Source: Lingula anatina (lineage: Eukaryota > Animalia > Brachiopoda). Taken from it: DNA of 64,000 bases. The translations under genes were made by a program, and so were the position numbers. Positions 61-37,009 of this stretch are shown piece after piece. The notes below the pieces were generated by a model. The model was not told the DNA's origin, did no database searches, and saw only the letters and a program-made list of their open reading frames with translations. The stretch is taken from the NCBI GenBank assembly GCA_051362555.1, contig CM120641.1, forward strand, positions 43,778,401-43,842,400, written 5' to 3'. Positions within the stretch are counted from its first letter, which is position 1. Each line of letters opens with the position of its first letter.

Positions 61-3000
61 TCATAAACCTCTTAGGAACCCTTCCATCCTTAAAAAGGAA
101 CTATTCTCATCATCAGAATAAAAGTCAGATTCAGAATCAGAATCTGCATATTTATACTGATCTCCAACAGTTACATCATCTTCCTGATTTACAACTGTGT
201 CTGTCACATTCTGCACTGCTACTGCCTTGTCATCTCCAACTCTCACATCATCCTCATCATCACTTGCAACTGTGACATCCTGATCTGCAACTGCCTTGTC
301 ATCTCCAACTGTCATATCATCATCATCATCACTTGCAACTGTGACTGTCACATCCTGATCTGTTTCAGCCTGATCCATTTGTGATTTTCTTTTCTTGTAA
401 TTAGATCTTCTACTTGGTGTCTGGGTGATAAAAAGTACAACTGCATTACTTCACAATTTGCCTTTAAAAAAAATATTATTCAGTTACACATATATTGGTT
501 GAGTTAAAATAAACTATAAGAAAAAAAGCTGTAAGATGGTACTTACCCACCAAAGAGTAATAGCCCCCATGGGATCAAAAGTATCTGGAGTGGCACCCTC
601 CAGTTTAATCTTCAAGAGATTGTTGAGGGTGGCATTACTCAGGCGCTGCCTTCTGTCTGTGAATAGTAGCTTCATATGAGAAAATGACACCTCACAGGAA
701 ACTGATGTGGGTGGAAGACTGTGAACAACATCAACCATCTTTAACACATTTGGGAAATCATTCCCCAATGTGTTGAACACCTTGTCCCATTGTAGGGTGG
801 AAATACTATCAAATCTGAAAGAAAAGTTTATACAGTTCTTCAACAACCACATCTGTATAAGTGTAATTGGATCAACATGTGCACAAGAAGTTCTACTTGT
901 CAAATCTAAAACAAAACAATAAGAATTCTTACATCAACTCTGTAAAAAATCATTTTGTGAATTAATTTGTTTTAGTAAAAGTACTTACGTCTTATAAATT
1001 ACTCCTTTGAGGAACCGCCACTCGGATATTGCTGTGGAAGCAGAAAACGGGAGATAACTACTAAATCTCTCCAAGACACATGGAATTTCTTTGTTGCCAA
1101 AACCTGAGAATAGTAATATTGCATTATAACTCTTTGGATTAAATTGAACAATTTAACACTATTGTTATAAATTCTGCAATATCGTATAGTATATCTGTAA
1201 AATCCAAAAGATCAGAAGAATTTTCAGAGGACAGTGAAATTTAAATTTTTAATAGAAAGACTAAAAAAACATATCAAGTATTGTTTCTTAAATATTCAGA
1301 AATATTGTTCAGTATAATCAAGGCATGCTAGTATAATTAATTCACACATTATTTTTAAATTAGTAATAAAACAAATTGAGCTGAATCAAAAAAAAAAAAT
1401 CATCAAATATGTAACTGAAAGCAAAAAATGTGAATTGGTAAAAGCAGCTGCATAACTTGACATGCAAAACTTTGAACAAACAAATATATAATATATAATG
1501 CTGACATGCAACAAGATAATTTCATCAAATATAAAACAGAAAAACTTAAAAATGCAACAAATAAAGTGAAAACTGAAAGAGAACAAAGTCAATAATCAAA
1601 GTTCCTAACTGGAAATGGCATTGGTGTCTTCCTTGTCTGGCCACTTCCTAAAATTGAAGACCTGCAGGTCTTTTACTATGGGATCCCCACTGCCAGCCAT
1701 GCGATCCGTAATAGCTTGGCACAAGTGTGCCAACATTTTGGCTCTGTACTCCATCTTCGGAGCAGTTCCCATCAGGGCAACACCTCTAAAAGTCCCTGTT
1801 GAAAGCATTTCATCGAGCTCTTCCAACTGCCTGCATAAAATCAGTAGATAGTAAATATCATGCAAGCTGACTTTTGCTTTTAAAATTAATTGATTAATTA
1901 AAAACACAGCAGACTGAAATGTTCTTAAAGCTTGAACATACCTGGTCTTTAAATCCACCAACTCATCAAGGGTCACTTCAACCCAAATACAAATGTCTGG
2001 TATGGTGACATCCTCTCTCTGGAGTTTGAGAGAAAGCTTGCTTAAGACTTCTAAGATTTCCTGAAAAATATGAAGCAAAAGGAAAAACAACTATTTGGAA
2101 GTTTGTTAGAGGACAATTTTAAAAGAGCTTTGGGACAAGCCATGATGGTTAATGAGTGCTTTTTAATGCCTGACTGGCTCTATTTAATGTAATTTACTCA
2201 TAGTATCAAATAGAATGTTAACTAAAGTACCTTCACCAAAAGTAAACATGCAACTACTTCCTTCGACTTCAAAAGCCTGCAGATGCCTTCAGCTTTACTG
2301 TTGTCTTGACTGCTGCTTGAGAGCTGTACATCTAAAGCAGAAAAAGATCTCACACATGCAGTGGTGGCCTTCCTCATGTGAGGTATCCATCTAAAAAAAA
2401 TCATTTTAACTTAAATACCAGAACATGTTAAACATAAATACTTTTAATTCTGTGTTAAATTATATAATTTATAAATTTACATAAATTTCTTTGGCCACTC
2501 TTCATAAGAAGAAAAAATTAATTAACTTAATTAAATTAAGGCCAACTTAAACAATTCATTTGACTGTTCCAAGAAGTAGTTTACCTAGTACCACCTGCTC
2601 TTGGTGGTATAACCCCATCAATTTGTAGCTCCTTGAAAACCCTTAACAACTGGGCCTTCTGTTTGCCGGATTTATGGTAAAAGTAATAGAGGCAGGTGAG
2701 CAGGTTTTGGGTCTAAAAGAGAGGAAACATGTAAAATGAAGCATGTTAAAAATGCTAATTGAAACAAATATTACATACTACTGATAGTTATATAAAGGAG
2801 GTAGTATCTGAGGTCACCTTATCGACAATCTTGTAGTTCTTCATAGCATCCTTCAGGGCCAATTCCAGACGGTGAGCAAGACAGTGCCATGTAAATATTT
2901 GAGGATGGTCTTTTTTCAACAATGCAGCAACTCCCTTTCGCTTTCCAATCATGTTGCTTGCTCCGTCTGACGTCAGTCCAATAATATTCTCTGATGGCAA

Positions 3001-4570
3001 GTTGTTTTCATTCAAGACGGACATTGCATGTTCAAATATATGTTGTGAGCAGGTGCTCACAGGAGTGCCTATATGCAAAAAATGTGTCACAACAACCCCC
3101 CTGTGGCTGCATCTGACGTACATCGATTCCTGCAAGAATAATTACATATTTATTTCTGATTACATCCTATTGATTGACAAGATAATCAAGATACGACTTA
3201 TATCTCTTTGCCTGTACATCTGACTGAATGTTTTATAATGCCATGAAAGCAACTTACAGTTGCCAAGTGTCTGAGAAAATCAAGTAACAAATGTTATATG
3301 AATACAAAAGGATTTTTAAAAAATAGTTCTGCATTTAGAAAACCTACATACCTGTTCTGTTCCACTCATATCTGTTGAGCCGTCCATCACAATACTATAA
3401 ACTTTGTTCTCAAATTTGTTTTTGGTACTGTTTCTCATATCATCAGCAATACATTCAACAAACTTTGTGCAGGAGGTTCTATTTAGGTGAGATGTCCCCA
3501 GTTTTGTCCCTTTGGCAATATCTAAATTGCAAAGCCATCTGAAAGATAGTCAAAGGTATATTTGTTAAATTGTTTTTATCCTCACAACAAATGAGAATAA
3601 AAGCTTAAAAATAAACCATAATTAAGAACATATAAGACTGCCACAATCACCTGAACAAAACTATATTAACAATGGATCATTTAAAAATTAACTTCACCTG
3701 TAATCACTGAGGGGCCGACCCATTTTGGCAACAAAATGGGCATTCCTAAATAAGACTTGATACTTCTGCAGTGCACTCTGGTGTAACACCTGCAGAGTCT
3801 TGGCAGCAGTGGACTCAGAGGAAGCAAGGCACTTTGGTTGTGAATTGGACAACGATGCCTGTACATGAGCTGATGACTTCTCATGGTCGTCCAAGGCAGA
3901 CTTACGAAAGTTGCTAGACCCTGAACATAAAAAGAAGATTTATAAGAATATTGTTTCATCAGGGATGAATGTGAATAACTTAGCACTAACTTTGCTGTGA
4001 CTGCTCCTATTTAAAAAAGATAAATTATGAAGAGGTGTAAACATAATTCACTGTGGCTGTTTCTTTAAGCAAATATTTTGTTTTGTCAACAATGAAAACG
4101 AATGCAAATAACTGTCAACAAACTTAACTGTTATTACCTTGCACAAAGGGATTGTTACTCTGACTTCCTTGAGAGCGACAATACGTGCATACCATCTTTC
4201 CTGATTCTAACTGTAACCACGGTCTTCCCTCCTGTGAAAAGAACCAACTTTTAACACCGTAAGCTTGGAACTACCGCTGTGAGTTGCCTAAAGTTGAAAG
4301 GAGATTTAAAGCTTCCCAAAATTACACCGAATTTGATTAACTACGACTTCAAACCAAAATAAATAAATAAATAAAAACACGTGTTCAGTTCAGTTCATAA
4401 ACCACCTCTTTCACTTATTTACTAGAAAATTGCAGAGCACTTACTTTCCATCTCTCCTCAAATTTCCTTTCTTTTCTATGTAATTCATATTTTTGGTGGG
4501 CTGAACTTAGCTTTGGGTTAACTTTCTTGCCGGGCCTCGCACCCTCCGACCACTTCAAGAATGCAGACAT
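61..4570 (-). CDS. hAT-superfamily transposase (ZNF862-like: TTF zinc finger, DUF4371/RNase-H-like DDE core, hAT dimerisation domain, acidic tail), 12 exons, ~770 aa
   Basis: Phase-consistent GT-AG exons: 4570-4445, 4231-4138, 3920-3698, 3538-3352, 3129-2818, 2712-2585, 2390-2231, 2060-1942, 1830-1610, 1103-989, 814-547, 420-61 (2313 nt, no internal stop). Motifs: RKFEERWK-EGRPWL..MVCTYC..HEKSSAH (TTF Zn finger), SIVMDGSTD, LTSDGASNM, WHCLAHRLEL, GGTRW, LPPTSVSCEVSFSHMK..RQRLS. Confidence 0.9.
130..378 (-). repeat. Coding tandem repeat (~3 units of ~69 bp) forming an acidic C-terminal tail
   Basis: Units encode VTVASDDDDDMTVGDDKAVADQD / VTVASDDEDDVRVGDDKAVAVQN / VTDTVVNQEDDVTVGDQYKYADS. Confidence 0.85.
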
Positions 4571-5387
4571 GTTTGACCGTAAATCATCCTCCAAGCAGTG
4601 GAGAGTTCCGTAGCTAGGGGAAAACCCCTACATTCGTTTGAAACGGATACTACGATTGGCTAGCGTACATTTGTATGTTATTTGTGACAAGGTGCGATCG
4701 ACTTTTACCTTTTGTTTAATTAGTAAATGAAAGAAAAACGCTATGGCTTGGATAGAAATTTATTTGTGAGGTACGTCGAGCGCTGACTGTAAATTCAACA
4801 TGGCGGCTCTTAAAAATCTTGCCGGTCCTTTGGACCGACCAAGTCCAATTTTTTACCGGTCCAGACAAATTTTGCCGGTCATGACCGATCGGACCGACAG
4901 TTTCAGCATGTCTGTAAGTTGAGGGTTCAAGTTATAAAAAATAAACTTGGACATTCTCAAACAAAAAAATGTGTGACCTTTCCAAGCCACTGCATTTATC
5001 ACTTGCATCTAAAAACATTTGTGGTTCACTGTTATATATGTACAGTACTCATCCAAAAACCCAGGACTGTCCTTCCTACAAAAGCACCTTCGAAATAATC
5101 GTAAATACCAAACTGTTCTACAAATAATGCAGCATGTCAGAGTAAAATCTCTAAATAGAACTGCCACATATTTTACATAATGACAAAATTACCTTGCTTG
5201 GAATAATAATAATGTGAGATATAATAAATCATGTGAATTAAAAGTGAAAATCTTATATCCCGTTCACACTACAATCTGAAATATCCTAATATTTGCAATG
5301 CAAATTACAGGTGAAAAATCTGATTCGGTTGTCTGGCCACACACAGCAAAGGGAAACTGAATTGTGCACTGAAAATCCAGATGGAGG

Positions 5388-5415
5388 TTCCGGTTTGAAG
5401 AATCGCGCATGCGCA
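5388..5415. promoter_or_regulatory. Candidate promoter: ETS core (TTCCGG, 5388-5393) next to an NRF1-type palindrome (CGCGCATGCGCA, 5404-5415)
   Basis: Near-consensus NRF1 site with retained CpGs in a CpG-poor background, next to an ETS core. No host gene starts here. Confidence 0.4.
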
Positions 5416-5707
5416 GAATCTATGAAAACCTTGGGCTATGTCATTGTAGACATGCTGATTCCTCTTCTTTGTTAGGCTTTTTTGGTGCTTATCCTACCTC
5501 CATATGTCAATCAAACAAGAAATTTCTTTGTGGGTCCACTGACCTGGCATGTTGCTTTTCTTTCCCGCGAGATTTGCTGGTGCATTCTCGATCAGCCTAA
5601 GCTGACCAGCCAAGGAATCAATACACGGTACTCATCACTAGAAATACTCCTTCCCAGCATCTACCCTTGACCAGGTCGTACCCCTCCTGGCCAGCAACAT
5701 GGTGTTC

Positions 5708-7991
5708 TTACTCAACATTGGGCCCCAGCCGGTCTAAATACAACCAACGCCCATTCTCCACAGTGATCTTGAGGATGTCTTCCCAGTCACACCCACGAAT
5801 TCTTGCCACGACTTCTGCTACTTTCCCCAGGAAAGCTGGAGTTGACTTATTCCTTGTTGGAAATCCGAAGTAGGGAGCATCAGTTTCCAGCAATAACCTT
5901 TGAGCAGGCATCCACTGTAACATCTCCATTGCTCTCCTACCCCTAGACATATCCATATACCTCCTAAAGATAGCAGTAGCTCCAAATTCGGTATTGGAAA
6001 AATATTGTACTCACTTCTCTGCCATCCTCCTGGACCCTGTGAAACATTGACAGTGAATTAATTGATCACTTTTCCCATTCTCAGCCAATCAGGGAATGTT
6101 TAAAACATGTCCCCAAACCAGGTTAGTAGCTGAGTCATCCTTGGGCCCTCGACAGTGGAGCACTAGTACCTGGTCTTCTCTTAGCAACGTAAGAGTTCTT
6201 TCCAGCACTTCACACTGCGCTTCCCACTGCCATGATGAGGTGGTGAAATCCACACCAATCTCACCCAGAACAGACACTTCCGGGTTGCTGGCTGCCTGTT
6301 CAAACTTTGTCCAGCCCTCTTGGTCAAACTCGTGTCTGGGGTGCCAACCCACCGACACCACGGCTCCCTCTGCCTTCAGAGAAGCCACCTCCTCAGCACT
6401 TGGATATGTTGCTGGGTCACAGAATATAACAGTAGCCCCGGGAACTGTTATTTCCTTGTCATCCACCTGTCTGGCCTCGATGACATCCTTCAACCCAGCT
6501 GTTGCTGATAATTCCAAGTGCTGGCGCACACGATCCACATGAGAATGACTGTCATATCCCACTGGAGGCTTAGGAATAGCCAGCTCTTCATCCTCTTTGT
6601 TGGAACATGTGCTCCTATACGCCTCCAGATCCGACGGCCATAACCGACGGCTATCAAGCTCAGCAAGGGTTTTCACAACAGCAGGGATCCAACTCTGAGG
6701 GCATACTCGCCTGATAACCCCAGGCCTTGGATAAATTTATCCACACCCTCCTTTCTACGCGGAGGAATCTCCTGATCCCTCTGCTCCATAAAATCACAGG
6801 CCTGGCATAACCTGTCCAACTTTGCCTGCATCCCAAACAGCCGAGTTGCGAGAAGGTGAAGAGCTCCAAATCTTCTTATCTCCATTCCCTTGCCGTCAAA
6901 CACCGGATGAAACACAGGAGGGATGTGTTTAGTCCATGCATGTTTCTCCGTTAAAACGCTATTACATCCAAACATTGGACACATGTTAGGACTCAGCGCA
7001 CTAGGTCCTGCGCCCACGGCACTGGTAACTCCCCCTTGACTGGAGCAACCACTCTGCCTTTGTCTCTTAGCGTGGGCCCATGTACCCAGCTCCTAGAGAC
7101 CACTCTTTGAAGGTTTAGTTCCAACCTTGCTCGATGAACTTCCCTTGGAGTCATCCCGTCTGCTCGATGAACTCCCCCTGGAGTCATCCCGTCTCGCCTT
7201 GGACACATCTTTACGCTTTCCTTGAAAGTGGGCAATCCCTGACTATGTGCCCCAGTTCAGAACATCTGAAACACCAATCCTCCTCAGACAGAGTTGGACA
7301 CTTTCGAGCCACATGCCCCACTTTTTTGCACCTGAAACACCTTTTCTCCTCATCCTTCTTGGGAACTTTAGAAGGTACCTTAGGAGGTGCTTCATGCCTT
7401 GTTGATTCCTTGGTTTTTTTAACAAACCCTGCCCGACTCTTAGGCCGTGGTTGGTAAGAGCCCTCAGTCTTAGCTGACTTTTCTCGACTCTGTAACGCTA
7501 CCAAACCACCTGGACTTGGTTTCTTAACAGCCTCCGCGTACGTTAGCTTTTCCCGCAAGTCCATCTCATTACCCCAGCTGGTAAGGGTAGCCCTCGGTGA
7601 CCTCCTCACCGGACTTGAAGGTGTATCCACCTCCATTGACTCAGTAGGAGTCCTCAGTATACTGTTTGATACTGACCCCGACTCCTCACTCTCCCCTCGC
7701 ACTACTTCCTCTAACCACAGTGCTCGGAGTCACTATATCCACCCTGTGCTCCAAAGTAGGGTCCTCTTGAAGTCTGACATCTCGATATGTGGCATGCCAC
7801 GCCTCTCGAGTAACCTTCCCTTTTCTGGGAGTGGCAACCCTGGCAACATGCTCACATACCCAACTGCAGGATTGAAAACCCACAGACAACAGGCCCTTAG
7901 CACAATCTTTGTGCCAAGCCTACGCATCTCTCTCCCTAGAGAGTGCCACCTGCTTCAGCAACAGTGCCTCAGCATCCCCCTGCAAGGCCAT
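5708..7991 (-). pseudogene. Disrupted intronless ORF: gag-like double CCHC zinc knuckle + Cys/His motif + C-terminal TatD-family nuclease
   Basis: Consecutive ORF pieces joined by frameshifts and stops: CFRCKKVGHVARKC and CFRCSELGHIVRDC (7211-7702); CPMFGC..KHAWTKHIP (6673-7017); TatD motifs GYDSHSHVDR, IFCDP, VGWHP, LGEIGVD, LVLHCRG (6089-6676), IHCQCFTG (~6030-6060, followed by a stop), RLLLETDAPYF..ITVENGRWLY (5708-5956). Putative ATG at 7991. Confidence 0.8.
7128..7193. repeat. 33-bp tandem duplication inside the zinc-knuckle/TatD ORF
   Basis: TGCTCGATGAACTTCCCTTGGAGTCATCCCGTC followed by TGCTCGATGAACTCCCCCTGGAGTCATCCCGTC; encodes DGMTPGGVHRA/DGMTPREVHRA. Confidence 0.9.
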
Positions 7992-8617
7992 TCTAACAAT
8001 ACTGGATTGAATAATATTGATGGGCTAACCACTACATGTTTTGTTGAACAAATTGTAAGTTCAAAATTTATATTTCTTAAAATAACTTTATGATCATGCA
8101 TGTTCTGTAACTACTTGACTAACTTTGATGCATTGATTTCCTCAAACATGTCATCTGACATTGTCTACTTTGGCACAGTTGTCCATTTACATTTCTTAAC
8201 ATTAACTTTTTTACATCAGGTGTATACATTGGGTGTAATGTCAATGTCACGAGTCATAATCATTGAAAACTTGTCCAAAATACAAAACTAATGCAATGAA
8301 TCATCAACTTCTAAAAGAGCAATGAGGTGTGACATGAGCATTAATATCTTTAAGTGTTAAAAGAAACTGTGCAGAAGGTTTCCTCGTTGAAGTGGTTGCA
8401 CAGCTTTAAATTAAGAGAAACCAAAGCCAATCATAATTAACATAACATCATATGTCGTCAGTATTTAACAATGAACATCACATGCTCAACAAAGTAACTC
8501 ACATATAAGTCTCAAGTACCTAATTATCTGTTATGTATACTATACACCATGCATGACCTACTGAGTATGACTGGGATAGACCCACAGATCCATTTGGCAT
8601 ATGTTTGTTCATGAAAA

Positions 8618-8940
8618 TGAGGGATCACCCTCCGATACGAAGCACTTGGGCGTGATATGTCCTGGTACGTTGCTGCAAATGCTCATGCTCCAAGTGCAGT
8701 TTCACACTGTGGTTGGAGTTTTTCACAGGTGGTAGCAGGCACTCGATATCGAAGGTTGCCTGATAAGGGCATTATCTATCTTCCTTGGGGATAACCAGAC
8801 CGTAATCCGCCAGTTTGTCAAAAATTGTTGGAGGTGTATTGTACGCTTTACCTGGGAATCACTATTCCACACTAGTTTCACATGTCCATTCGTGACGATG
8901 AAGATCACCTTTATGCTTGAACATTTTGTCGCCTTTTGGG
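8618..8940 (-). mobile_element. Polinton/Maverick (adintovirus-like) protein-primed DNA polymerase B fragment, degenerate
   Basis: Reading through stops and one frameshift: KGDKMFKHKGDLHRHEWTCETSVE**FPGKAYNTPPTIFDKLADYGLVIPKEDR*CPYQATFDIECLL...EHEH / SICSNVPGHITPKCFVSEGDP. This matches the Zn-finger + ExoI (FDIE) region of Polinton pPolB. Confidence 0.75.
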
Positions 8941-9300
8941 CTGGCTGAGAGGCAGGTATGGCATAAATGTGCAAAACGACAGTTCCTCATGCCACATCCC
9001 TGTCTTCCGTAGAAATTCAAGCGCACAGGACGGCCTGAGATGGGGTCTATTTTATTCTGTCTTGGCTGTCTTGTGCTCCTTTGATGTTGTGTAGGGGTTT
9101 GTCTGAGCGTAAAAAGTAGCTGCATCAGGAAGACGTTGTCTGTCCCCCATTGGAAACCCTGAACTGCCTGGAGCTTCTGATACTCTGCATCATATTTGAG
9201 CAGGGACGTCCAAGTAAAAGTCTGGGCCATACACGCTATTTTCATGACATATCCAATGTAGCTACTGTGTTTCTGACGGGGTCTCTTGTTGAGATGGACA
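8941..9300 (-). mobile_element. DIRS/tyrosine-recombinase retrotransposon ORF1 (gag-like) C-terminal fragment
   Basis: YIGYVMKIACMAQTFTWTSLLKYDAEYQKLQAVQGFQWGTDN...NFYGRQGCGMRNCRFAHLCHTC: the W..YD..R..Q....W block plus terminal Cys/His finger typical of DIRS/Ngaro-type ORF1. Confidence 0.65.
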
Positions 9301-9391
9301 TGTTCTCTTAATAACACTGAAAGTAACATATAAAAAGGTAAAATAACTGCACTTGGACCAAATCTCGTATATAGTTCAATCAAGTATAGTA

Positions 9392-10560
9392 CTAAGTAAC
9401 TTTCTTTACTTTGACACACTTTAAGTGGAACCACTCAATCTCACAATTGTCACTGTCAAAGGCAATCGTGGCATCCAACTCCTCTGGTCCATTGCAAACA
9501 CAAAATGACTGTGTTGAAGCTGTTTCTATAATCTTAGGTGATGAGTAATATTTACACAGCAATTCAGGGATTACTGCACTGGTGAAAAACTCCCTCGCCT
9601 TGCATACCATATTACTCTACATCAAACAGTTCCTTGTAATTCTTTCAATATGAATGTCTCCCTCTGTCCATACCACAAAATCGCAAAACTCAACACCACA
9701 CGTGTAGCTGTGTTTGGACCTGGAACATATACTGGTGGTGGCGTATGAGATGCAGCCTTCCTCCACTGAGGTATACGCATGAATTGGGATTCTTGGCATA
9801 TTCTTCAATGGTGTCGTGTCTTGCACAGAATGGGCACTTGATATCCAGAACACCAGCGCCACAGCAATCACACGATGTCTGTCCATCAGGAGATGCACCG
9901 ATAATGGGATATTGGTATCAGTTCCGAAACCCTAATGATTTAAAACAAAATTCTCCTGACTTTCCTCCAATAATTTCAAGTACTCAGTTCTAGCCTGCTT
10001 CTCATGTGTGCAACCCCATCTTGTAGCTGGTGATGTGAAAGATGAAGACTGAAGATAGCAAATGTTCTGAATGAGTGACCAGGATGGAGAATCTGGATTT
10101 GAGTGACACACCTGTCTCATTCAGAGATATCTATAGCCTGACACTTGTAATTCTGCCAGCTCTAAAGTTGTGCCACAGTTTGCTGTCAGCTTGATCCTTA
10201 GTAGCCTGCTCTACAGCACTGACTTCAGCCGATGTGACAGAGATATCTATAGCCTGACATTTGTCCAACAGATCTGGAAATGAGATATCACCAAAGTCCT
10301 TGTTATAGAGTTCAGTCAGTTGAGCTGGTAACTGTTCCCTCAGTGTGGTGGGGATGAAGTCAGTGCTCTGTCCAGGAACAGTACGTAAGATGACAGCTTT
10401 TGAATTGATGGTTTTCGGTTTAGAAAAAAGGTCCACAAAGCAGGTGGTACCGTCCGACTTGACCTTTTTCAAAGTGTTTTATCGCCCTCATCTGTCATGA
10501 GAATCTTCCACTGCGCTTCACTGGAGGAACACATAACAATTTAGGCATGATACCCTGCCT
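9392..10560 (-). pseudogene. YqaJ/lambda-exonuclease-like PD-(D/E)XK nuclease + PHD finger, transposon-derived, degenerate (copy 1)
   Basis: QADSKLWHNFRAGRIT, SPATRWGCTHEKQAR, IGASPDG..SCDCCGAGVLDIKCPF, HQYMFQVQTQL..CDFVVWT, then CVCNGPEE..DNCEIEWFHLKCV (PHD). Multiple frameshifts and stops. Confidence 0.8.
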
Positions 10561-10579
10561 GTGAAATACTCTTGCCTTA

Positions 10580-11872
10580 GAAGAAATATATATTCACAGT
10601 AAAAAATCTTTTCTAATTCTCTTGCAATGGAAAACATGAAGAGACCATACAAAAAAAAATTACAATAATCTAAATCTGACACTAACAGTTGCATTTGAAC
10701 TTGATAATAATACGAACAGTCCTTCTTTATCTGAAGTTCCCCATCTACAGTTTCAAGCCTGAATGCAAGATGTATCTTGAAGAGAGGAAGGACATCTGAT
10801 CTCCAAGAGACCCCAGCTTGCAGTATTCACAAAAGAAAGCCCATTAGGGCTGGCTCCAAACTCAGGGTAGTCTGGGTTGATTAATAGTCCACAGGCCTCC
10901 ACTTTAAATTCAACATTTAAGGGTGACATATACTTCACATAATCTTTCCTTGGCACATTTCCCTTCTTTATTCCCCATTCTGTTGGTGCACTATGAAAAA
11001 ACTGGGGATAACACACAGATTTCACAACAGAAATAGAAGGGTTAGTCAAATCAGTGTGCACAACAGAGCACAACTTTGACGCTGTGATGCGGCCGAGTCG
11101 ATACTATCTCCAGTAAAGTGACTTTGTCTGTTCAACTGTACTCTCTGCTACATAACCTGCCTGAGCCTTAGTTATAGATATAGCAATACCTATTGTACAT
11201 TGAAGAATGTCCTCTATATTAGCAAAGTCTGGGTTTCTGACTGTACTGAATTCCATGGGTCATTGTCCAAGGAGAGCTTTCGGCCTAAATTTGTGAGCAA
11301 ACTGGGGATTTATTGCCAATACACTTGCATTACTCACATGAACCTGCAGTTCCTCAAAACAGTTACTCATTTCACTCTTTGTAGGGGACGAAAAATCATT
11401 CTTCAGCACCACATTACTGTTCATGTCTTCCATTTTTTTTATTCTTTTTGTCCCAGACTGGAAGTCCATGTCCTGGACATGCTTGTATGGCTCCTTTAGA
11501 TTACTGGAGGATGAAGCCACAAAGTATGCAGGCACATCAGTAACTGACTTTTCCTTCCTGACTCTAGTCCAGGTTTCCAGTGCAAAAAGCATTGATAAAA
11601 ACTAAGAGATTTGAAAAATGCCTACTCTTGTGAATGTAAATAAAAACAACATCAAATTGATTTTACAAAGTTATAATCTGAGTTTATTCAAAATGTTTTA
11701 ATACCTTAAATTTCAACAAGTGAAGACCATTCACTTTTTTGTGTAGGATGTCTTTCGCCCATCCATCCTGGAACAGTTTATAAGCTTTCAGTGACTTATA
11801 GTTCCTCATTTCCTCCTTAGAGCATGGTGACTTTTGAAAGATCAGAAAGTGAATTATGTCTACAATGTTCAC
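10580..11872 (-). pseudogene. YqaJ/lambda-exonuclease-like nuclease, degenerate (copy 2, divergent from copy 1)
   Basis: N-terminal DIIHFLIFQKSPCSKEEMRNYKSLKAYKLFQDGW, LFALETWTRVR..SVTDVPAYF, YRLGRITASKL, APTEWG, CGLLINPDYPEFGASPNG..GLLEIRCP, YYYQVQMQL..YCNF. Intron-like segment at ~11600-11705. Confidence 0.8.
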
Positions 11873-12100
11873 CTCTGGTCATGAGTCTTTGTTCCTGCTG
11901 TTGTGACTTTATTCACAATTATAGTGACTGGCTGTCTTTCCTTGGATATAACACCTCCTTTGAGAGCAGCCTTTGCTGGTATAGTTGCATCTTTATGCTT
12001 TTGTGTATCATAGTAAGTATTAACTGATGGTAAAATAACCTGCTCTTCTACCTTGCTCCCAGGCGTCATTATGTCATCATTAACAAAATCTACTTATGTC

Positions 12101-12240
12101 CTACTCAACTTTCAGCCAATTCTCTTCTATTTTCAACCTTTTCTTTTCCAGTGCTAACCGTTCCTCCTCTATTATAACCAAATGATTTTCTGTTTTGGCT
12201 TTCTCTGCCATCCAGCAAGATCTGTCCCCAACTCTTTTAG
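12101..12240 (-). pseudogene. Short coiled-coil coding fragment, resembling the C-terminus of MSANTD4/Harbinger Myb-like accessory proteins
   Basis: Translates KRVGDRSCWMAEKAKTENHLVIIEEERLALEKKRLKIEENWLKVE*. Only the ERL.LEK.RL.IEE pattern supports the call. Confidence 0.3.
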
Positions 12241-14315
12241 CCTTGACTTGGGTAGGACGTGCTTGTTTGGAGGCAGGCTGTTATACTCCCTCCTCTTTGT
12301 GCATTGAAGAATTCATTCTTTGTTTTTTGTTTTTTTTTTTGTTTTTTTTTTTGTTTTTTTTTCATTCCAAATACAAAGCCAGAAGATATGTCAGACACTT
12401 CAACCATGGACGTTTTTGCCCCCCCAATTTCCCACTCCCCCCTGACACACACTTTCAATTTCCATCAATATGCATATGATTTTTAGAAGTATAAGTAAAG
12501 ACAATTAGTCAGTCTTTTATTATATAATATTCAGATCACCTTAATGTCAAGGTCCTCTCATGATTACATCAAAAGTTGCAACATCAGTGTTATCTGACAT
12601 TGTTGTTGTCTGACTGATAAGGGTTTTCTTTTCTCTGATTGGTCAGGAATAGTGATGAAGTCTTTGGTCAATATTATGATTAGTGATTATGTCACAGGTC
12701 AACATTTACAGACCTTGGATTAACTGATATAAAATCATAGTCTATGCCAATATATAATATATGCAAAGTATATTGCACTTAGTTTATCAATATGTTACCT
12801 TCATGTTAACAATGCAAAGCACTAGTTGGTTCATCACTTGAACTCCATAAACAACACTAATAATAATAGAATTTAGCTGTTGATAGCTTAGTGATACCTA
12901 GCTTTGGGCAGAACCTCAGCAGCAAGAATATCACATCTCAGATACACTTTTCAGCTAATGTTGCTTTGAAATAATCTTAAATCTGGTGAAAATTTAGTTA
13001 TAATGTCTAATTTTTAATTATTAATATAGATGTAAGTTAAAGCTGTATATTAAAACAAGCGAGTTTTGGTTTGGTCCATTAGACAAAAATGTGTGGGTTA
13101 TGATATTTATTTTGTACCAAAAAAATAAAGAAAATAAAAACACTATTATAATCATCTGAACTGTCCCTTTTATTCTGTTAAATATAGGGCAGTGACATAT
13201 GTCACATTGCATAAATGTCATTTTTATCACATCTATGATAATGGATAACACTTCCACAAAAAGTATCGGAATAGAAACTACTACTTGAAGGCACCTTCAC
13301 CCACAACTACGAATGTACAAACAACAGAACTGTGCCAATGTAGAAACAAACAAAATGTACAAAGAAAAGTGAAAAAAAGAAAAGAAAAAAGCACATCATC
13401 TCCATACTTTTATACAAAAGTACTGGTCCTCTAATTCTTTGTAGTATATTAAACAAAAATATAACGGATATATTATTAAGTATCTACACTTGAAAACAAA
13501 TATTACAGTAGTTACAAATAAGTAGTATAGGCAGAACACTTGTAGACTTAACACAAATCCCATATCCATAACAAAAAAATATTTATTTGTTAAAATTCTC
13601 TTGAACAATATTGTGTATATTTGTTTTAATTGTCTAAATGCATGTGGTGCAGTGCTTAAATATAATAAACTTAGTGACATACTATTAATAAAACAAAAAA
13701 TAGAGATTTTAAGTGCATATTAAACTTATAATACAACATGAGATTTTTTAAATTATCATTTAATCAGACAAGTTATGAGATTATGAAAAAAGAAACGTGT
13801 CTGGCATAGATAAAAATTTCAGGCCCCATGATAAGCTCTTGTAATACCCTGCATTATTATATTGCTTCAAAATGCTCTGAGATTTTTAAAGAATTATTAT
13901 TGCTACAATACATCACAACTCTCCTGAATACTGTTACTGAGGTGTGTTTTCCAAAAATTCTGAAACCAGATATTCCTCTGCATATATTCTTATAATGGAC
14001 CCCTAAATAAGTAAAACTGCTATTCACCGGTATATGGGCAATAACCCCATAACTCTCAATTGTCCTAGAATCCAAATCACCAAATTCTGGCTTTTTACAT
14101 ACTTGCTTTAAGATCAGGAATTAAGTCTTGATTTAAAAAAAAAATGTACAAAGAATGTAAAGTAAATTGTAGATAAAGACAAATGCACCGTATGAGAGAT
14201 GCACCATTTCACAGTTGCATTTGTCTACGAAAGAGCCCTGACCTCTTCTTCACTAATATGTGATCAATCTGTATAAGACTTCAGTTGAGTTGTAAGTCCA
14301 CAGTAAATTTCTGTT

Positions 14316-17300
14316 CTACAGCTGCAAATCCCTGGCACCAGATGAAGGCTTGCACACGTAGAATGTCGGCTCCCCCTTGTATTTGCTCTGGGATAAAGAG
14401 ATAGTGGGTAGTACACATGTAGGATTGTTAACAGATAGATTTGATTACAAAAGGCGAGACATGATTCAAATTCCCAATTCTAAACATCTTTGCATACTTT
14501 TAGTTCTGACGAATAACTATTATCATGACATTTATCCAACATTACCTACAAAGCTATTGTGAGAAATAATTCAAATTTAATGTATGCTGTGCAACATAAA
14601 GGCCACAGAAAGAGGTGATTTTAATTCTCATTTCTAATTATCTTTGCACACTCAAGCTCAAACTGATATGGAAATTTATATTATATAATCATATTATAAA
14701 CCTTAACTAAATTTTTATCTCCTGATACCATTAGACTAAAATGGGTTTTGATTCACATTTTATCTGTTCCATACAGTATACAAGGCTACTGAAAGAATGA
14801 AAGTGATACAATTTTAATTCTCATTTCTACGCATACCTTTATATTCTGCATTGTTTTCTCTGCTGCATCAGACTTGACCAAGGTCACTGTGCAGCCTCCA
14901 AACCCACCCCCGGTCATCCGGGAACCATACACACCGTCCACTTCCAAGGCTGCTTCAACCAGCTGGTCCAGTTCTGGACATGAGACCTCATAATCATCTC
15001 TAAAATGTAAAACGTTGTGAGAAAACATTATTACAGACAAATGATAATAAACCACTGAAGAAGTAATTTGGTACATTTTTAGATATTTACATTATTTTCT
15101 TTTTACTTTTTGATTCCTGATTTAAAAACAAGTACAGTGTGTGTGTGTATTTCAGCCAATTATCAGACAAATCGGGGGACAAAACAAAGTATGAAACAAT
15201 GAGATATAAATAGATAAAATGTGATAAAAAACGATGCAACTAATCAAAAGAAAATACCAGTTTTGTGGAAAGTATCATCAGGGTTACCAATACACCAAAT
15301 ACGATAGAATTCTGGTGAAGTTGCTAAAACAGCTAACCTCAGAGAAATGTGACTTTCAACCATCAGCTTGCCGAACAAAACAAAGTCTCCATTCTCCAAT
15401 GCCTGGGCGCCCTCTTCAGTTCTGAGGTTCTCTTGGATCACGTGTCTGGCTCTACGGAAGACCACTTTGTCAAGCTCGTTCTTTGCAGCTATAAAGCATA
15501 ATTATTAGAAATACTAGTAGCATGCTAAGTAAATTTTTGTCTCTTTATTCAGATTTGTCAAGAAATAATCCGTAACATTACTGAGATTAATTTCCATTTA
15601 AAGTATTTTCAATAACATTTTCCCTCGAGCCACAACTTCATACTTTTCCTGTGGTTAGTAATGACACAGGTCATGATGTAACTGAGATATCTAACCGTTT
15701 AAAGTATTTCCAAAAAGTTGAAATTTTCCAAGGCCACAGCTTATTAAAAGGATCAAATTAAATTATTTGACTGGTTTTCTAACTCGGATATCACACAAAA
15801 CATATTATCCTTTTCAATATTTCTTCTTTTCAATGTTGTTTGGTTCAGTGGACTAGTGCTATTTCCTTTTTGGTAACCAAATATCTTGTAATTATCAGCC
15901 AAATCATTTATCTTGAGTTAAGGCAGTTACCATTTAGTAATGAGGTGACGTCAAGAATGTATTACCACTTCAGATGTTATCATGACTAAATGTTACACCA
16001 GTTGACTTAGTGATAATGAGTTGATAATTGAAAATGATGAAATTATTGGCAATAAATGAAAAATATCACCTTGAATGATTCACAAACACAAATCACAAAC
16101 TAATTTTTCAATCAAAAAATGTATATCTCCAGTTTTTGATCCTCACATTCAAGATCTTCCATGGTGGCATCCCTGAGGCTCTTCTTCCCCATCTTCTCAG
16201 CTGCTACTCCACACTGAGTTTTCCTTGTGGAGTACTCGCTGCCTGTCAGCTCATGGCGAACATTGGAATTAGTCACCAGGACAGTCAGGTTGGAATCTTT
16301 TAGCGGAACCAACTTTGACTCCAAATGTCTTCATGCAGGAGAGACAAAAAATATTTTATTATGCATGGAGGTGTTTGGGAGAAAAAATGATTGAAATTGA
16401 TTTCAAAGGATATTACATTGAGTATATAGTATCATATCCTGTAGATATTTCTCATATATATTCAAAACATGCATGTGTCAAATGTTTAGTACACACTCAC
16501 TAAGCTTGAAGCTATTAGCAGATATTTCTTATTATAATATTCAAGGTCAATCAATTTTGGGTCACATAATATCAAACAACATAGTATTTTAATACGATTG
16601 ACTTTAAACATGTAATACATTAAACATGTAACACGCATACCTACAATCTATCAACAAAGCATGCCCTTCCTTGGCCATCATAGACACAAACTGATCCATG
16701 ATTCCACAGGGAAGGCCTGCAAAATCATTCTCAGCCTTCTGACATGCTAAGGCTTTGGCTTTTTGGTCCATGTGGTTTGTGGAGGGGGAGAGCTGGTCAA
16801 GGAAAATGTATGTGGAGACCAGGAGAGCTGCAGAGCTGGACACTCCTCCACCCAGAGGCACTGAGCTGTGGATTATGGCATCAAATCCACTGAGATTTCC
16901 TGTAAAAATATCGTTTTAGTTGTTTTTAGTTCTCAGTTGCAATTAATTTTAAATATATATATATATTCTCTACTGAATGTTAAGACTCCATTAATTAATT
17001 TACTACTAGTTTCTTTGAGACCAAATACTTTGACTTCAGTAGCTGAGATTTCCCCACGATATAAAATTTAATTTAAACACTATTACAACTATGTACATAT
17101 ATGATCATTGTAAGTTGATAAGAAGCTGTTCAGTATATTGTTTTACATGCAATATCTTTAATATGAAAGTACAGTCACTTCACCAAAGGTAGGTATAGTA
17201 TATCATGCAGGTGCTTAACTATATAAATACACATTAAGAATAATAGCAACCTTCCTAGCCTATCACGTACAGATTTAAATATAGTTCAATCAATTAATCC

Positions 17301-20300
17301 AACAAATCTATTCACTTTCTGCATAATAAAATGCAGGAGTGGAAGCAGATTGCACTTCTTTGCCAATAAATTATATTCAGATATAACCAGTTTTTATTTC
17401 ATAAAATTACAAAATGATTTTAAAAATTCTAACAAAACTAAGGTTGGTTTTATTTCTGCAATATGAAGGGGAGGGAATAATAAACAGAACTTTACCTTTA
17501 AAATGGGATATAACTCCTTTGACATAATTTGCCCATAAAGGTTTCCCCCTCTGTAGTGGGTTGTCCTTTGTGGGCACAGGGAATGATATAGACTTTGGCT
17601 CATCTGCATGTTCTTGTGTGGTCACAATATTTATAATGCCTTTCTCAGTTTTGCTGCCAACAAATAAGGTAACCAGAGGTAAGGCCTAAAAAGAAGTTGT
17701 GAATAAATAAATGTTAATATTAATAATTATGAGATGGCTTAAATGTTATTTTTACTTAAATTTGCTTTTAATTAACAGTAATTTTATTTACAGATACATA
17801 AAAAGCCAGCGTCAATTCCCACTTACACATATAAACACTTCAACTAGCTTCTTATGCAACCAAAATAAAATTGACATTCCAAGTCATAAACAAAATATCT
17901 AGTTCAGCCATAAAATAGCTTTAAAGCTGCACCTTCACATTTCTGGGCGTAAATTGACCCATTTATCTGTTCCTCCAGTTCATAAAGGTCAGCGAAATGA
18001 TGAGTACTGCACGCCCATTGCATAAGTATTGCTCTTACTCCAATGTACTAGTAAATGTATGTGCCCACAACTGCATTTCTATTCAAATGAGACTACTGAG
18101 GGATATTTATAGTGCAGAGGACAACCAGAATATATATATATATCTCCATTCTACTATCATTTTACGGGAAATATGAAATAATGTCCTTTTGTATTTCTCT
18201 AGGCAATACAATATGAAACAATATGTTGGTGTTTGTTTGAGTTTCGCTGCAAACATTTGACTTAAGATGCATCTTTAATTTATTTGTTGCCATGCTTTAC
18301 AAGTTTTTTTTTTCTAAATGTTTTAAATCTTTCTTTTTTCACAAGGAATAAAGATCACATTCTATTTAGGCAGCATGTTTTGTATCATGTGGCACATGTA
18401 TATTTAGTTCTCTAATGCAAGGTAATGCATACTTCATAAAAAGATTAATGGTACGTCTGCCTTTTTATAGACTGGTAAAGTCGGTTATGTTAGAGCCATA
18501 CGTATAATTCATTAATTTACTATACAGTATACATGCTTTCCTACATGTGTATTATAACCACCCTGGGTTTCAGTGGCTACTCTATAGCGGATGTCAGGGT
18601 CAATTCCTATTAAAACTTTTGTTCTTTGTAAAAAATAAAACTATTGTTCTACGTACATAGATCCAGCTCTGCAGGGACTCTAGCTGAATGCAATCAGATT
18701 AACAGATTAACAAACCCCTTCTTGTTTCCAACTTACTTGTCTAATCAGGGATCGATGACAGAGAAGAAATGTCAAAGTTTCAAGCCAAAAAGGGGGGGGG
18801 GGGTATATTTAAGGAGGAATTAAAGAAAGTGATAAAATCAATGAAGGATGCGAAGGCAACTGCACTAGATGAACTACCAGCAGAAGCGCTTAAAAGCCCT
18901 TGATGAGGATTATATTGATGTTAACATTATAACCTATTTGTGTAACACCATCTACAGCAGTGGAATAATCCTAACTGAAATGAAACACTCAATATTTGTG
19001 ACTCTTGAAGAAACTAAAGCCCAACATTGTACTGAATTAAGAACAATAATTTTAATGAGTTATAATATTAAAAGTTTTTATTGAAAGTAATACAGCAAAG
19101 AATAGCAGACAAAATTAAATCTAAGAAAATTAACTATTTTTGACCACATCATAAGAAAAGATTATTTGCAGTGGTTGCTACTGAAAGGAAAGTTAAATTG
19201 GAAAAGACCAAGAACAACATGGATGGACAACATAAAAGAATGGACTTATCAAAAATAATAATAATAATAATAATAATATTTATTTCTTAAAACCGCACTA
19301 CACTAGCGTCTCAGTGCTGTTTACAGGTAAAATTATTAGGATTACAACTTATTATATATATAATAAAAGCTAAGGTTAAAAAAAAAAAACAATTAAAATA
19401 ATTAAAACTTTTTTCTGATAAAATGAGAAGATATTAATTAAAATACTGTGCAAATAAGAATGTTTTTAAATCTTTTTTAAAAACCTCAACACTGTCAATA
19501 GTCCGAATGTGTGAGGGTAATTGATTCCATAAAATTGGTGCTGAAATTGAAAATGCCCTGTGGCCGTAGGTTTTGGTTGTTTTTTATTATCATTTCTGAT
19601 AAAACAAGGAGTGGAGGTGGATCTGGTAGACCTGGTGAGACTGGGTGTACTTGGATGTAGCATCGAGTTAAAATATGAGGGGCATTCACCTCTAGTGAAT
19701 TTAAAAACAAACAACAGTAATTTAAAAACAATTCTCTGTCGTACAGGAAGCCAATATAGTTCGAATAAAATGGGTGAAATGTTTGATCTGAGAGGGATTT
19801 TGGTCAGTAGTCGTGCTGCAGCATTTTGGACAGATTGCAATTTTTCAATTTGATAGGTAGGAAGACCATACAGTAAACTGTTTCCGTAGTCAAGATGTGA
19901 AGTTATAAAGGCATGGACAAGCCTCTCCATTTGACTTTTATCAAGGATGTGGGATAGTTTGGAAATTTTTTTAAGACCATAGAAAGCGGCTTTGCATTTT
20001 TTGCTGATGTCGGCAGCCATATCGCACCTATTATCAAAAATTACTCCAAGGTTTTTAACCTCATCTTTTACCGTGACTGTACTGTTTCCAATTTCTAATA
20101 GTTCTAGTTTTTCCGCATCCTTAGAAAAACGAAATATAGTGAAAGTATACTAATGACACAAGATATTGTACACAGGCATGGCGATCCTCGACAGCCAACC
20201 TGCTGATCATGAGAGTCATATGGAGAATGGATGGCACCCAATGATGATGACATTATATTAATATATTAAAAAATAAATATAGCTAAAACATATAATACCA

Positions 20301-23300
20301 ATACAGGCAAATACATCATCTGTCTTCCTTCATGTAGAAATACATTACTAATTATTTCATGTCATATTACATATGTGGGCATATCAACTAATCTTAATAA
20401 AATTTTCATTGCTGCCAATCTCTGGACTACTGCTGCAGGGAAATAACAACCCATATAAATTGAATTTACAACATATAGATATTTTTCATCATAATCTGAT
20501 CTCATGAAGATTTAACATACATAGAGTTTCTCCACTACACTCTGAACCTACTCTCCCATTTTCTGGTTTCAAACCAGCACACTGAAGCATGTGGGTTGCA
20601 GCATTTGAACCAATAGATAGGGCAAGATTTAACAGCATGCTTTAAATATCCCCATGTGAATGTTGCAGTCAATTTTCACAACCATTATTGAAGATTTAAA
20701 ACACTTGTAGCATGGGAACATTTGCCCAGAACTTTTTGATTACACAGGCCCGTAGCCAGGGGGGTTCGAAAGAACCCCCCTTTTGCAGGGAATAGGTCCC
20801 CTCTGGGTGAAGTTTAATTAAGGTACATGAAAGTTTCATGGTAAAAGGTCCACTTTTTCAGAAAAAGAACCCCCCCTTTTGAAATTTCTGGCTACGGGCC
20901 TGTTACAACTTGGTGCCCTTTTGAAATTTCTGGCTACGGGCCTGTTACAACTTGGTGAACCTCAGTTTTTAGGGCGTAAATGTATTTATAGTGGCCTGGG
21001 TGTGGATTACACATATGATATAATCAAATTACAGCTGGTTATTTAAGTGAGCAGCTGGGAATTCAATATACCTGTCTGACTGACCAGCAGTCTAGCACAC
21101 TGAACTGGCCTAAATATAAAGGCTTGACCTGGTCACTGCTGTGATATTCTGCACAAATACAGTTGCCCAATGTTCACTGTCTGGTGAAAATCTGGTGCAA
21201 GTATCCAAAGTTTGTTGGTGTGTGTCATAATTAACATGTAACAATATAACTGTATTGCCTGTATTACAAGAAATTAAAAAGATTAATTAAATTTGTGCCT
21301 GGGTTTATTTAAGATATTATAATACCTAACTGTCTACTTATTCATGATGAATTGTTATGGTATCGAGCTCTTAACCTTTTGAAAATTGTTTTTTACTACG
21401 TACTGTGGAGACAATGGCAGACTCACATATGTCTGCAGTCCCTTAATTGTGCCAGAAGTAAAGGATATTAATGCAAACTAGAAAAGTACTCAGAAAGTGA
21501 AGACCTTCAAAGCAGCTCAATTCTCATTAATATTAATTAACTGTTAGTTATTTATCTTAACTATCATTACTGATTAGCTATTAATTATCTACTCCATTAG
21601 CTAAATTATCATTATTTATCTATTAAATCATCAGTTATTAATTATAAGTTTATGGATAATAATCTCCTATAAACACTGTGCACAATAGATTAACATTGTT
21701 TATTTTTTATTATTTATTAATTTAACAGACACTTCTTGATTTGCTAAAATCCTAATAAGATTCAAGTTTATTAACTGTAAAAATAAATATATTTTCTTCA
21801 CTGGTGCTGTTTTTATATTCATTTAAAGTGTGACTGAAGTGGCAATGAAACTAACTGCTACTTAAACTAGAGGCCCTTCCAAAGGAGATGAGGTATAGAA
21901 TTTGTTTAAATGTCATGCTTGCCCTACCTATATATATATATCAAGTATACATATAGAGACCGTCTATGACGGCAACATCTTGGAATACATTAGCATTTAT
22001 CCTAGATTAATGAATGAATGCCTGTCTGAAAACAGCAAGAGGAGACAGATAAATGGTTATTTCTTTGACCTTTGAAATGTGCCTTTGAAATGTGTGGGTT
22101 GGCATGAATACCCTGTTCATTGATGACTTTCTTTGAAGCATGATAAACAAAATTCCATGTTAGAGGGCACTCAGAACAAGTTGGTCCCCAGACTAAATAT
22201 GGCCGACTCACTTAAAAGCAGTGCCAACTAATTCCCTGCTGACATCTAACAGGATCGGTCCATCTCCATGGGGTTTCCTGCTGAATTGCTTTCAGCTTAG
22301 TGGCTAAGATGTCTGGGATGCCTACGTAAGCTGCTGTAGGATAGTTAATTACCCCCTAACAGCTTCAGTAGGCGTGACAGACATCTAGGCCGCTTAAGTT
22401 AATTGCAATGAAGCGAGAATCCCCAAGGATTTGATTTAAAGTTAGTACGATAACTCTGGGAATGGTCTCTTAGTCTGTTAGATCTGTTAGACCATCAGGG
22501 GTTTAAGCAGCTCTGCTTTCAAGTGGGGTCAGCCATATTTAGTCCGCAGATATGTCCGCATATCATCTGTTCTGAATGTGCTCTTATATAACATTTACTC
22601 CTAAAGGCAAATAGTGCCAGTACTGAGTAGGTAAGGTGCGTTAAGGGATATAAGTATGGCTTATCTAAAAGTTAAAGGAAGCAAATTGCATAAGGTGCAC
22701 TAAGGGCTTAAACGTGGCTTATCTACAAGTTAAAGGCAGCTGATTAGATAACAATTTACTATACCGAAGCTACGCAATATATGTATCCCTTATTTCAGTC
22801 CAAAATTTCAAATTAAGGATTTGAACCAAAGTTTAAGAATATGGCTCTAAGTATGGCAAATATAAAAAACGCTTGTTAAGAAAACTGATACAGAATTTTC
22901 TTTTTAAAGATAATTTTAAAGACAAAAATTTGTGAAATAATCATAAATGTCGCTTTTATATTTGAATTCACCCACACTTGATGCTGGAATGTCAAAATGA
23001 AACCACAAGGATGTTATCAGTGTGGTTAATTATTTTGTTTGAGTACAAGTACTTGTCTAGACATTCCAGGCTCACACGCTGATGTCTAAAACATGTAGAT
23101 CTAAAACTACATGTATTTACTCTTATTGGAGCAGAGGAAAATATTAAAAACCTTTCATGGCAATTGATACTAGATTTGTTTTTGATCACTTGCCAAGTTG
23201 GGTAGAGTCAATTTGTTTGTGTGTGTGTGTGTGTGTGTGAGGTATTACATTGGCAATGGTCAGGTTTGGCAATCAAAAAGTCAGTCATGTACTCTCGGAA

Positions 23301-23989: not shown

Positions 23990-24434
23990 AACGTTGCAAA
24001 AATCTGTTCTGTTCTGGTTTTCCAAGTTCTTTTCAGTTATGATTTTTTTCGAAATCTCTCCGTTTTTAGATGACACACCTCTTGGTTTCTCGATCCCTTT
24101 TGTTTATGTCTAGTATCGGATGTTGGAAAGTGTGGCGTAAATGCCGCGTGGCAAAAGATTTGATTTAATCACCATTCTATTAAAACTGTGTACACGTGAA
24201 AGGTTAAATGATTAAAATGTTAACATCATTTTAATTTATAACCGCCAAAATCTGTATGATTTTTTACTCTTTGCAAACGAAACCGAAACAGATTGCATTT
24301 TACGACTTTACAAAGTACCTACTTCAGAAGGCGGCATTGATTTAGTTTCCAAAGTACAATCAAGAATTATCGTTATATCGGCTGATGTCCACCGGACATG
24401 TACGGCGTGACAGAGGATTTGTCTGGAATTAACG
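23990..24434. promoter_or_regulatory. Bidirectional promoter region between GALK1 and the RUN-PDZ-PTB gene
   Basis: Divergent ATGs 445 bp apart; CpG density is locally elevated. Confidence 0.75.
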
Positions 24435-36333: not shown

Positions 36334-37009
36334 CAACTCTGGAAACACTAAAGAGGATACAGTAGTGACATTGCCATATTGGATCTTGTCTCTTTATCCA
36401 TATGCTCACACCTAGTGGCCAAAGACCCCAATCTCATACAGCTATAATCTTTTGTTTTGTTTTGTGGAAAGTGGAATCGATATGTTTCTATTTTGGCAAT
36501 GGAAGGGATGTGTTCCCATAGATGCTAGTCTTATAGGTAGAATTCTCAGTTTTTGGAAGTGGACGGAATAGAATGTGTGTTGCCACAGATCTCGCATTCT
36601 TAAATATTGACATTTCAGTTTACAGGAAGTGTAAACAATATGTTGCCATGGATACCAGTCTCTTGTAGACTGAGATATGAGTAGACATTTCAGTCCTTAG
36701 AAAGTGAAAGTGATATGGCCTGAAACCAACTAAATCTCCACATTTAACATTTGAAGAACTTTTTGAAGTTTGTCAACTAGAGTTATGCCAAAGATATTAA
36801 TTTTGTATTTAACCAGAAAGAAGTGATATATCACAGTCTCTTGGAAAAATTATTAGTTTATAGGAGATGGAAATATCAATAATAGAATTAAGATTATGCC
36901 AAAGGTACTTGCAATTAAGCCGAAAGGAAACAAAGTTGTTCAACCTGTTCAACCCATTCATAGATATTGGGACAAAAAATACCAATTTTGGTTATCAAAT
37001 TAGTGCTCC

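Follow-up and report, generated by a model that had tools for sequence, protein, structure and literature searches.

A 64,000-nt stretch of the Lingula anatina genome (contig CM120641.1; hereafter the window) contains a broken open reading frame (ORF) that combines two zinc knuckles with a TatD-type nuclease, and this raises the question of what kind of gene carries such a combination. A reading made from the sequence alone (the sequence-only reading) took it for a Gag-like, nucleocapsid-type protein fused to TatD, belonging to a selfish element outside the standard transposable element (TE) superfamilies or to a new virus family. Our analysis indicates that the ORF is a dead, truncated copy of the third ORF (ORF3) of a clade of Ty3/Gypsy LTR retrotransposons, whose TatD domain likely derives from the host TATDN2 line and would clear RNA:DNA hybrids; we give this reading as a whole a probability of about 0.85.

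The intronless, GC-richer ORF of about 760 codons described earlier, with its knuckles, CP..GC motif and TatD motifs, was recovered in full on the minus strand, and Pfam agrees. It spans 2284 nt (761 codons) and has a GC content of 50% vs 35% for the whole window. Its features are as follows, with P0002 denoting the closest protein, the intact 800-aa product of L. anatina LOC106158303.

5708-7991, minus strand: decayed ORF3 (TatD cargo gene) of a Ty3/Gypsy LTR retrotransposon, 5'-truncated (tblastn with P0002; tree place among ORF3s with gag/pol context)
7746-7991, minus strand: remnant of the N-terminal helical domain with DxRxxxxP at its end, first ~36 codons gone (match to a purpose-built HMM at 7746-7919, 72 bits)
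7339-7298, minus strand: CCHC knuckle 1, CX2CX4HX4C, inside the basic disordered linker (motif search and Pfam)
7273-7232, minus strand: CCHC knuckle 2, CX2CX4HX4C (motif search and Pfam)
6611-6987, minus strand: family-specific middle domain, a putative Cx4C...H...HxP zinc site plus a helical bundle (HMM match 6691-6987)
6981-6964, minus strand: CPMFGC (motif search)
5711-6562, minus strand: class II (HxH) TatD TIM-barrel nuclease domain with two stops and one metal ligand replaced (PF01026; structural match to YcfH 6l25)
6553-6539, minus strand: DSHSH (motif search)
6349-6338, minus strand: GWHP (motif search)
6265-6248, minus strand: GEIGVD (motif search)
6157-6149, minus strand: HCR (motif search)
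6055-6035, minus strand: HCQCFTG (motif search)
5887-5873, minus strand: ETDAP (motif search)
5430-5707, minus strand: probable 3' untranslated region remnant of the element (contig depth raised at 5138-5604, with loose ends at 5429 and at 5585; PPT motif absent around the ORF)

The Pfam matches, to zf-CCHC (E 2.2e-12, two stretches) and to TatD_DNase (PF01026; E 1.3e-14 and 1.7e-11, two open pieces), are far beyond chance. P0002 is 87% identical to the window copy over the TatD part and has the same two knuckles, which lie inside one and the same ORF in this intact relative. Tblastn with P0002 on the window returned four collinear segments of 78-87% identity without introns, which are interrupted by three frame changes relative to P0002 (at about 7700, 7215, and 6648) and five stops (at 7922, 7095, 6675, 6091, and 6013). 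About 36 N-terminal codons of P0002 have no match in the window, and beyond about 8000 the GC content falls to 18-36%; the window copy is therefore 5'-truncated, and the ATG at 7991 is not the start of the family's protein. The set of TatD motifs, described earlier as complete, is present, but the metal-binding His directly before the Cys in the HCQCFTG region is replaced by Gln, whereas all 47 aligned relatives have His. The window copy is thus a dead, truncated internal fragment. Profile and PPT motif searches of the window found no gag, pol, PPT, or LTR: the gag/pol profiles gave only knuckle matches and weak PHD cross-matches, and the PPT motif gave one distant match at chance level. Around the ORF there were no long repeats, direct or inverted, and the 3' untranslated remnant probably stops before any PPT or LTR.

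Several related copies of the ORF exist. In sequencing run X1, the summed DNA contig depth is 331-604 over the ORF vs about 68 on single-copy flanks (about 5-9 times), a measure that shows several related copies and is not a copy number; contig variants reveal that other copies carry internal deletions. PolyA reads cover the ORF at a low depth of 1-4; in three stranded runs they are antisense, as judged against the exons of the minus-strand galactokinase gene; sense expression of the window subfamily was not seen in these three runs. Most of the antisense reads are diverged, and other copies may be their source.

The relatives of this ORF form a large protein family. Among the matches listed, a profile search gave at least 150 50%-clusters, all at E < 1e-79, with named members from Lingula, Pecten, Mercenaria, Mytilus, Dreissena, Saccostrea, and Mya. 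They follow a common plan, in which a helical N-domain ending in DxRxxxxP is followed by a basic disordered linker, a Cx4C...H...HxP middle domain, and TatD. In the AlphaFold model of P0002, residues 1-90, residues 375-510, and the barrel have high confidence and the linker is disordered; the N-domain (residues 1-90) is modelled as five helices (pLDDT 90-98), and the middle domain, folded alone, reaches a pLDDT of 93. The C, C, H, and P of the middle domain are invariant in 93 rows. Searches with this domain gave no Pfam match, no PDB match at E<=0.001 with Foldseek, no BFVD match, no usable Atlas match, and a best Z of only 3.5 in a wide structural search with VIA; those with the N-domain gave only Atlas rows below threshold. 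The middle domain is accordingly a confidently predicted model without a structural match in these searches, and such null results indicate neither a new fold nor its absence. The maximum of the Kyte-Doolittle 19-mer is 1.3 in P0002 and exceeds 1.9 in 3 of 82 long members, and ORF3 is predicted to have no env-like membrane anchor.

We then examined the genomic context of the relatives. From 30 metagenome loci and further contigs from host-contaminated bacterial bins, we tallied 50 contigs, leaving out L030, which has a split TatD and is probably a host gene; these contigs come from few assemblies and represent many element families from few hosts, not 50 independent hosts. The ORF was linked to same-strand Gypsy gag/pol domains in 36 contigs. 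The link was present in every one of the 28 contigs that either extend 1.5 kb or more beyond the middle domain on its upstream side or have a permuted order (integrase and/or PHD in 27, gag in 1); among shorter contigs, four had PHD or gag upstream, and in four others gag lay beyond a collapsed LTR on the downstream side. In the other 14, upstream DNA amounts to no more than 1.37 kb, too little to show a link. The layout of the element is gag (HhH-capsid-CCHC), pol (PR-RT-RH-IN-PHD), ORF3 (TatD), PPT, and LTR, and its capsid is of the PNMA/Ty3 type. The complete gag-pol-ORF3 order was found in L014, L016, L020, L046, L048, L050, L054, L059, and L063, and a permuted order in L012 and L056. Of the 20 loci that were examined, 12 have a conserved PPT/LTR start, GGGGRGRAR-TGT, downstream of ORF3; terminal direct repeats occur in some collapsed contigs, in which the tRNA PBS candidates are inconsistent. 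Gag followed by pol (PR-RT-RH-IN), which characterizes Ty3/Gypsy, was found in the relatives and not in the window copy; the element belongs to a standard superfamily rather than to a new TE superfamily or virus family.

The association extends beyond these contigs. An Acanthaster gene model (P0310) joins rve, PHD, and TatD. Among the matches listed (120 of 536), the same type of integrase-PHD occurs in gastropods, bivalves, sea urchins, and a crinoid, and a related integrase without a listed PHD occurs in a hemichordate; no Lingula pol was among these 120 of 536 integrase matches. One bacterial bin, titled Sedimenticola (G001; L046-L062, L066-L125), contains 118 integrase matches and many near-complete LTR elements of animal type; this bacterial MAG is contaminated with host DNA. 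In sister Gypsy lineages, the place of TatD is taken by an extra ORF that is SGNH/GDSL-like (L068:399-1187, L070:553-1362, and L083:1696-2472); the match of the L068 ORF to Lipase_GDSL (E 1.5e-4) is below the cut-off.

Both phylogenies agree with this context. In a reverse transcriptase (RT) tree of 70 rows, built with a quick method, 12 of the 13 TatD-bearing elements fall in one clade (SH-aLRT 99), each with a PHD in its integrase; the thirteenth, L062, is in the sister group. The PHD is present in 0 of 57 TatD-less contigs, which were taken from 60 fetched G001 integrase contigs (of 118 matches) and some of which may end before an ORF3. L062, L134, L140, and L141 represent a second ORF3 subtype, which measures about 500 aa and lacks the N-domain; the TatD and RT trees alike place it as sister to the main clade. 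The integrase of L062 is without PHD.

The TatD tree comprises 64 rows, was also built with a quick method, and was rooted on seven bacterial rows; TATDN1 and TATDN3 were left out, and P0188 was dropped as too short. All 48 ORF3-type rows, including the window, form one clade (support 97), which is sister to eight TATDN2-like proteins plus P0023 (support 95); the name TATDN2 is the source's own for one of these eight rows, and the others were labelled by grouping. A phylogeny against TATDN2 and bacterial TatDs, part of what the sequence-only reading suggested, places the family in a clade of its own next to host TATDN2. The nearest rows to the window are two Lingula proteins; next come L007, where gag lies downstream, and L006, with an integrase-PHD on the upstream side, at moderate support (81-90). 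A tree constrained to place the window and P0002 within TATDN2 was 87 lnL worse (p-AU 0.0003), in a test whose grouping came from the refuting case named in the sequence-only reading and which was run after the tree was known. A TATDN2 orthologue or a processed TATDN2 pseudogene nested in the host family is thereby rejected, as the clade is sister to TATDN2 and not inside it. Regarding other host TatDs, TATDN1 and TATDN3 scored 62 and 54 bits in profile comparisons, far below YcfH at 130 bits, and the HxH motif excludes class I TatD according to the available part of PMC10085689. The (F/Y)C.P motif is present in 8 of 8 TATDN2 rows and is common to ORF3, whereas its F and C are found in 0 of 7 bacterial rows. 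This common motif fits a likely capture of the TatD from the host TATDN2 line, of which direction and date are inferred. Taken together, the tree, the AU test, and the gag/pol contexts of relatives uphold the earlier proposal of a selfish element, and we are highly confident that the window ORF is a Gypsy ORF3; for its own subfamily, the link to gag and pol is one to which its place in the tree points.

The intact ORF3s are predicted to encode a class II (HxH) TatD nuclease. The metal ligand set (HxH, E, H, H, D) is kept in 46-47 of 47 ORF3 rows, and VIA-align superimposed the TatD part on YcfH (6l25) with a Z of 28.4 and an rmsd of 2.9 over 248 aligned residues. Its cellular kin have two kinds of described activity: in the accessible text of PMC10085689, the class II TatDs TATDN3 and YcfH have AP endonuclease and ssDNA 3'-5' exonuclease activity, and in that of PMC10711561, human TATDN2 acts on R-loops by degrading their RNA strand and leaving the DNA, and it also degrades hairpin RNA. 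The Ty3/Gypsy clade carries ORF3 in the env position, between integrase and PPT, and we propose that it is expressed from its own message as an active accessory nuclease. The basic linker, together with the two knuckles in the Lingula subfamily, may tether the enzyme to RNA or to the retroelement particle, the knuckles presumably adding RNA binding in the knuckle-bearing subfamily only. Its activity would be like that of TATDN2, a 3' exonuclease or endonuclease acting on the RNA of R-loops and hairpins, and it could remove RNA:DNA hybrids, or stray nucleic acid in single-stranded form, as the element goes through its life cycle. Such a clearing role is plausible at somewhat below even odds, and a role other than this one and the two considered next is improbable.

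A possible but less probable role is counter-defence, in which the nuclease would break down RNAs that mediate silencing or scaffolds of nascent RNA, or would destroy cDNA by-products in the cytoplasm before the host senses them. ORF3 behaves as dispensable cargo in the env slot, where sister lineages have other ORFs or none; the two extra domains, which belong to no known family, could bind host proteins; and the antisense RNA described above suggests that the host silences the family. A silencing-related role has also been raised for the DEDDy ORF3 of rotifer elements in the available part of PMC5408684. However, no host target has been identified, and the retained catalytic set and the kinship with TATDN2 fit housekeeping clearance of hybrids equally well. 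A more elaborate version, speculative and rather unlikely, would be an old Gypsy clade spanning protostomes and deuterostomes that captured a TATDN2-type R-loop RNase, armed it with the two extra domains, and kept it as a dedicated anti-silencing nuclease beside a chromatin-reading PHD integrase, the knuckle pair of the Lingula branch loading the enzyme onto the element's own RNA or particle.

The enzyme might otherwise act on DNA and, with AP endonuclease or 3' exonuclease activity, repair damaged cDNA ends or sites or trim intermediates of integration. This agrees with the activities of TATDN3 and YcfH mentioned above and with the best solved structural matches, which are of the YcfH type, but it is unlikely, as the closest cellular clade is TATDN2, which acts on RNA, and nicking its own cDNA would damage the element. 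We retain the hybrid-clearing role as the working proposal.

It is also conceivable that the knuckle-bearing Lingula subfamily has left the retrotransposon, either as a domesticated or retrocopied, expanded host gene family or as a non-autonomous unit, with the window copy as a pseudogene. Three members (P0002, P0008, and P0049) are annotated in RefSeq as Lingula genes, gag-pol is absent from the window, and relatives include the pol-deleted derivatives L013 and L029. Yet the subfamily is multicopy, decayed, intronless, and surrounded by other TE debris, and the three Lingula genes sit on two separate ORF3 branches, each among element-borne ORFs, which makes this explanation quite improbable.

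The knuckles, which had been taken as the defining feature, are a rare add-on in the family. We screened 171 family proteins, 82 of which are long enough to show the linker, with 150 or more residues ahead of the middle domain; CCHC knuckles occur in 3 of these 82, two in P0002 and one each in P0036 and P0038, from which it follows that the ORF is not a Gag fusion. A Gag/nucleocapsid-TatD fusion at the core of a new TE superfamily or endogenous virus, suggested by the two canonical knuckles within the basic region of one ORF in P0002, is largely refuted by the gag-pol-ORF3 layout of the relatives, in which the true Gag is a separate upstream ORF, and it is very improbable given this scarcity of knuckles, the absence of capsid matches in all 171 proteins, and the lack of a relative in viral contigs (28 pattern matches, none confirmed). 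For the knuckle-bearing P0038 and for the integrase-PHD protein P0214, the recorded source is in both cases a JGI contig of 9805 nt, probably one and the same. The derivatives L013 and L029 have gag knuckles just upstream of ORF3, and such pol deletions are a possible route by which knuckles reach ORF3.

Enzymatic third ORFs have precedents. The Juno and Vesta LTR retrotransposons of bdelloid rotifers encode a DEDDy 3'-5' exonuclease or a GDSL esterase as ORF3, and in the accessible text of PMC5408684 they resemble the present elements in being Gypsy-like, with an enzymatic non-env ORF after pol, conserved catalytic residues, and a function that is predicted only. In contrast, the fold is DnaQ/DEDDy there and a TatD TIM barrel with two extra domains here, and the TatD clade has an HhH-Gag and a PHD-integrase and spans brachiopods, molluscs, and echinoderms. 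The env of errantiviruses occupies the same slot between integrase and PPT (PMC13524379, available part), but the TatD ORF3 is a predicted enzyme rather than a fusogen and is without a membrane anchor. Among cellular proteins, host TATDN2 is likewise a class II HxH TatD with the (F/Y)C.P motif and a long N-terminal extension, as far as PMC10085689 and PMC10711561 are accessible, and forms the sister clade; ORF3 differs as an intronless element cargo with its own N-terminal and Cys/His domains and is about 26-30% identical to it. YcfH and TATDN3 (PDB 6l25, 1yix, and 2y1h) have the same fold (Z 26-28) and two-metal ligand set but are stand-alone cellular enzymes of about 260 aa without the extra domains.

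A literature search, with Repbase, Dfam, subscription journals, and supplements outside its scope, returned no paper on a TatD in an LTR element. The available parts of PMC6238403, PMC13524379, PMC8220671, PMC12440569, PMC6338049, and PMC2836005 contain neither a TatD ORF3 nor a PHD-integrase Gypsy clade. As for named Gypsy clades such as MolGy1-16, Cigr-1, and the C-clade, PMC6238403 mentions no ORF3, PHD, or nuclease in its available text, supplements excluded, and the accessible portion of PMC6962438 mentions TATDN2 only as a host gene. What is new is the TatD cargo with the domain set of its clade and a brachiopod branch with an added knuckle pair, whereas the Ty3/Gypsy superfamily and enzymatic third ORFs were known; a family with TatD already catalogued in Repbase or Dfam could reduce this novelty. 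The finding extends the accessory genes of LTR retrotransposons to an enzyme class that is new among them. With well over 100 divergent members and catalytic residues kept across phyla, the clade appears to have been under long selection for a function. It also means that many genes annotated as 'TatD' or 'uncharacterized' in bivalves, brachiopods, echinoderms, and host-contaminated bacterial bins are transposon cargo. The window copy itself matters only as a pointer to this clade.

The neighbours of the window ORF are unrelated TE debris. The fragments stacked at 500-12800 (hAT, the TatD ORF3, and a YqaJ element) are all on the minus strand, and polyA reads over 5600-12800 in the stranded runs are mostly antisense to them; the stack could be piRNA-cluster-like, or the reads could come from other copies. 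An intron-split hAT transposase remnant lies at 500-4200 (minus strand; Dimer_Tnp_hAT, E 6e-9). It is probably polymorphic, since run X1 has one contig over 1-4291, whereas in other runs the depth is low and a joint skips 1829-2843. At 8690-9300 (minus strand) are short fragments, of which one, with only a weak, unrelated Pfam match, may resemble the gag zinc finger of DIRS/Ngaro elements and another the N-terminal part of a protein-primed PolB. A decayed, multicopy YqaJ/alkaline-exonuclease ORF with a PHD-like finger occupies 9400-12600 (minus strand) and presumably resembles those of ISL2EU/KolobokP elements. We considered the PHD at 9400-9560 as part of the window element's integrase and rejected it, because it follows YqaJ-type ORFs and scores only 21 bits vs 65-103 for most true integrase-PHDs. 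Elsewhere in the window, a host galactokinase-family gene lies at 14789-24103 (minus strand; exons 14789-15091, 16607-16915, and 23687-24103), contig depth marks very high-copy short repeats at 4670-4915, 18670-19970, 20750-20900, and 22240-22520, a complex set of local duplications spans 37000-40400, and a 260-nt MITE-like unit with 50-nt inverted arms is located at 55050-55309.
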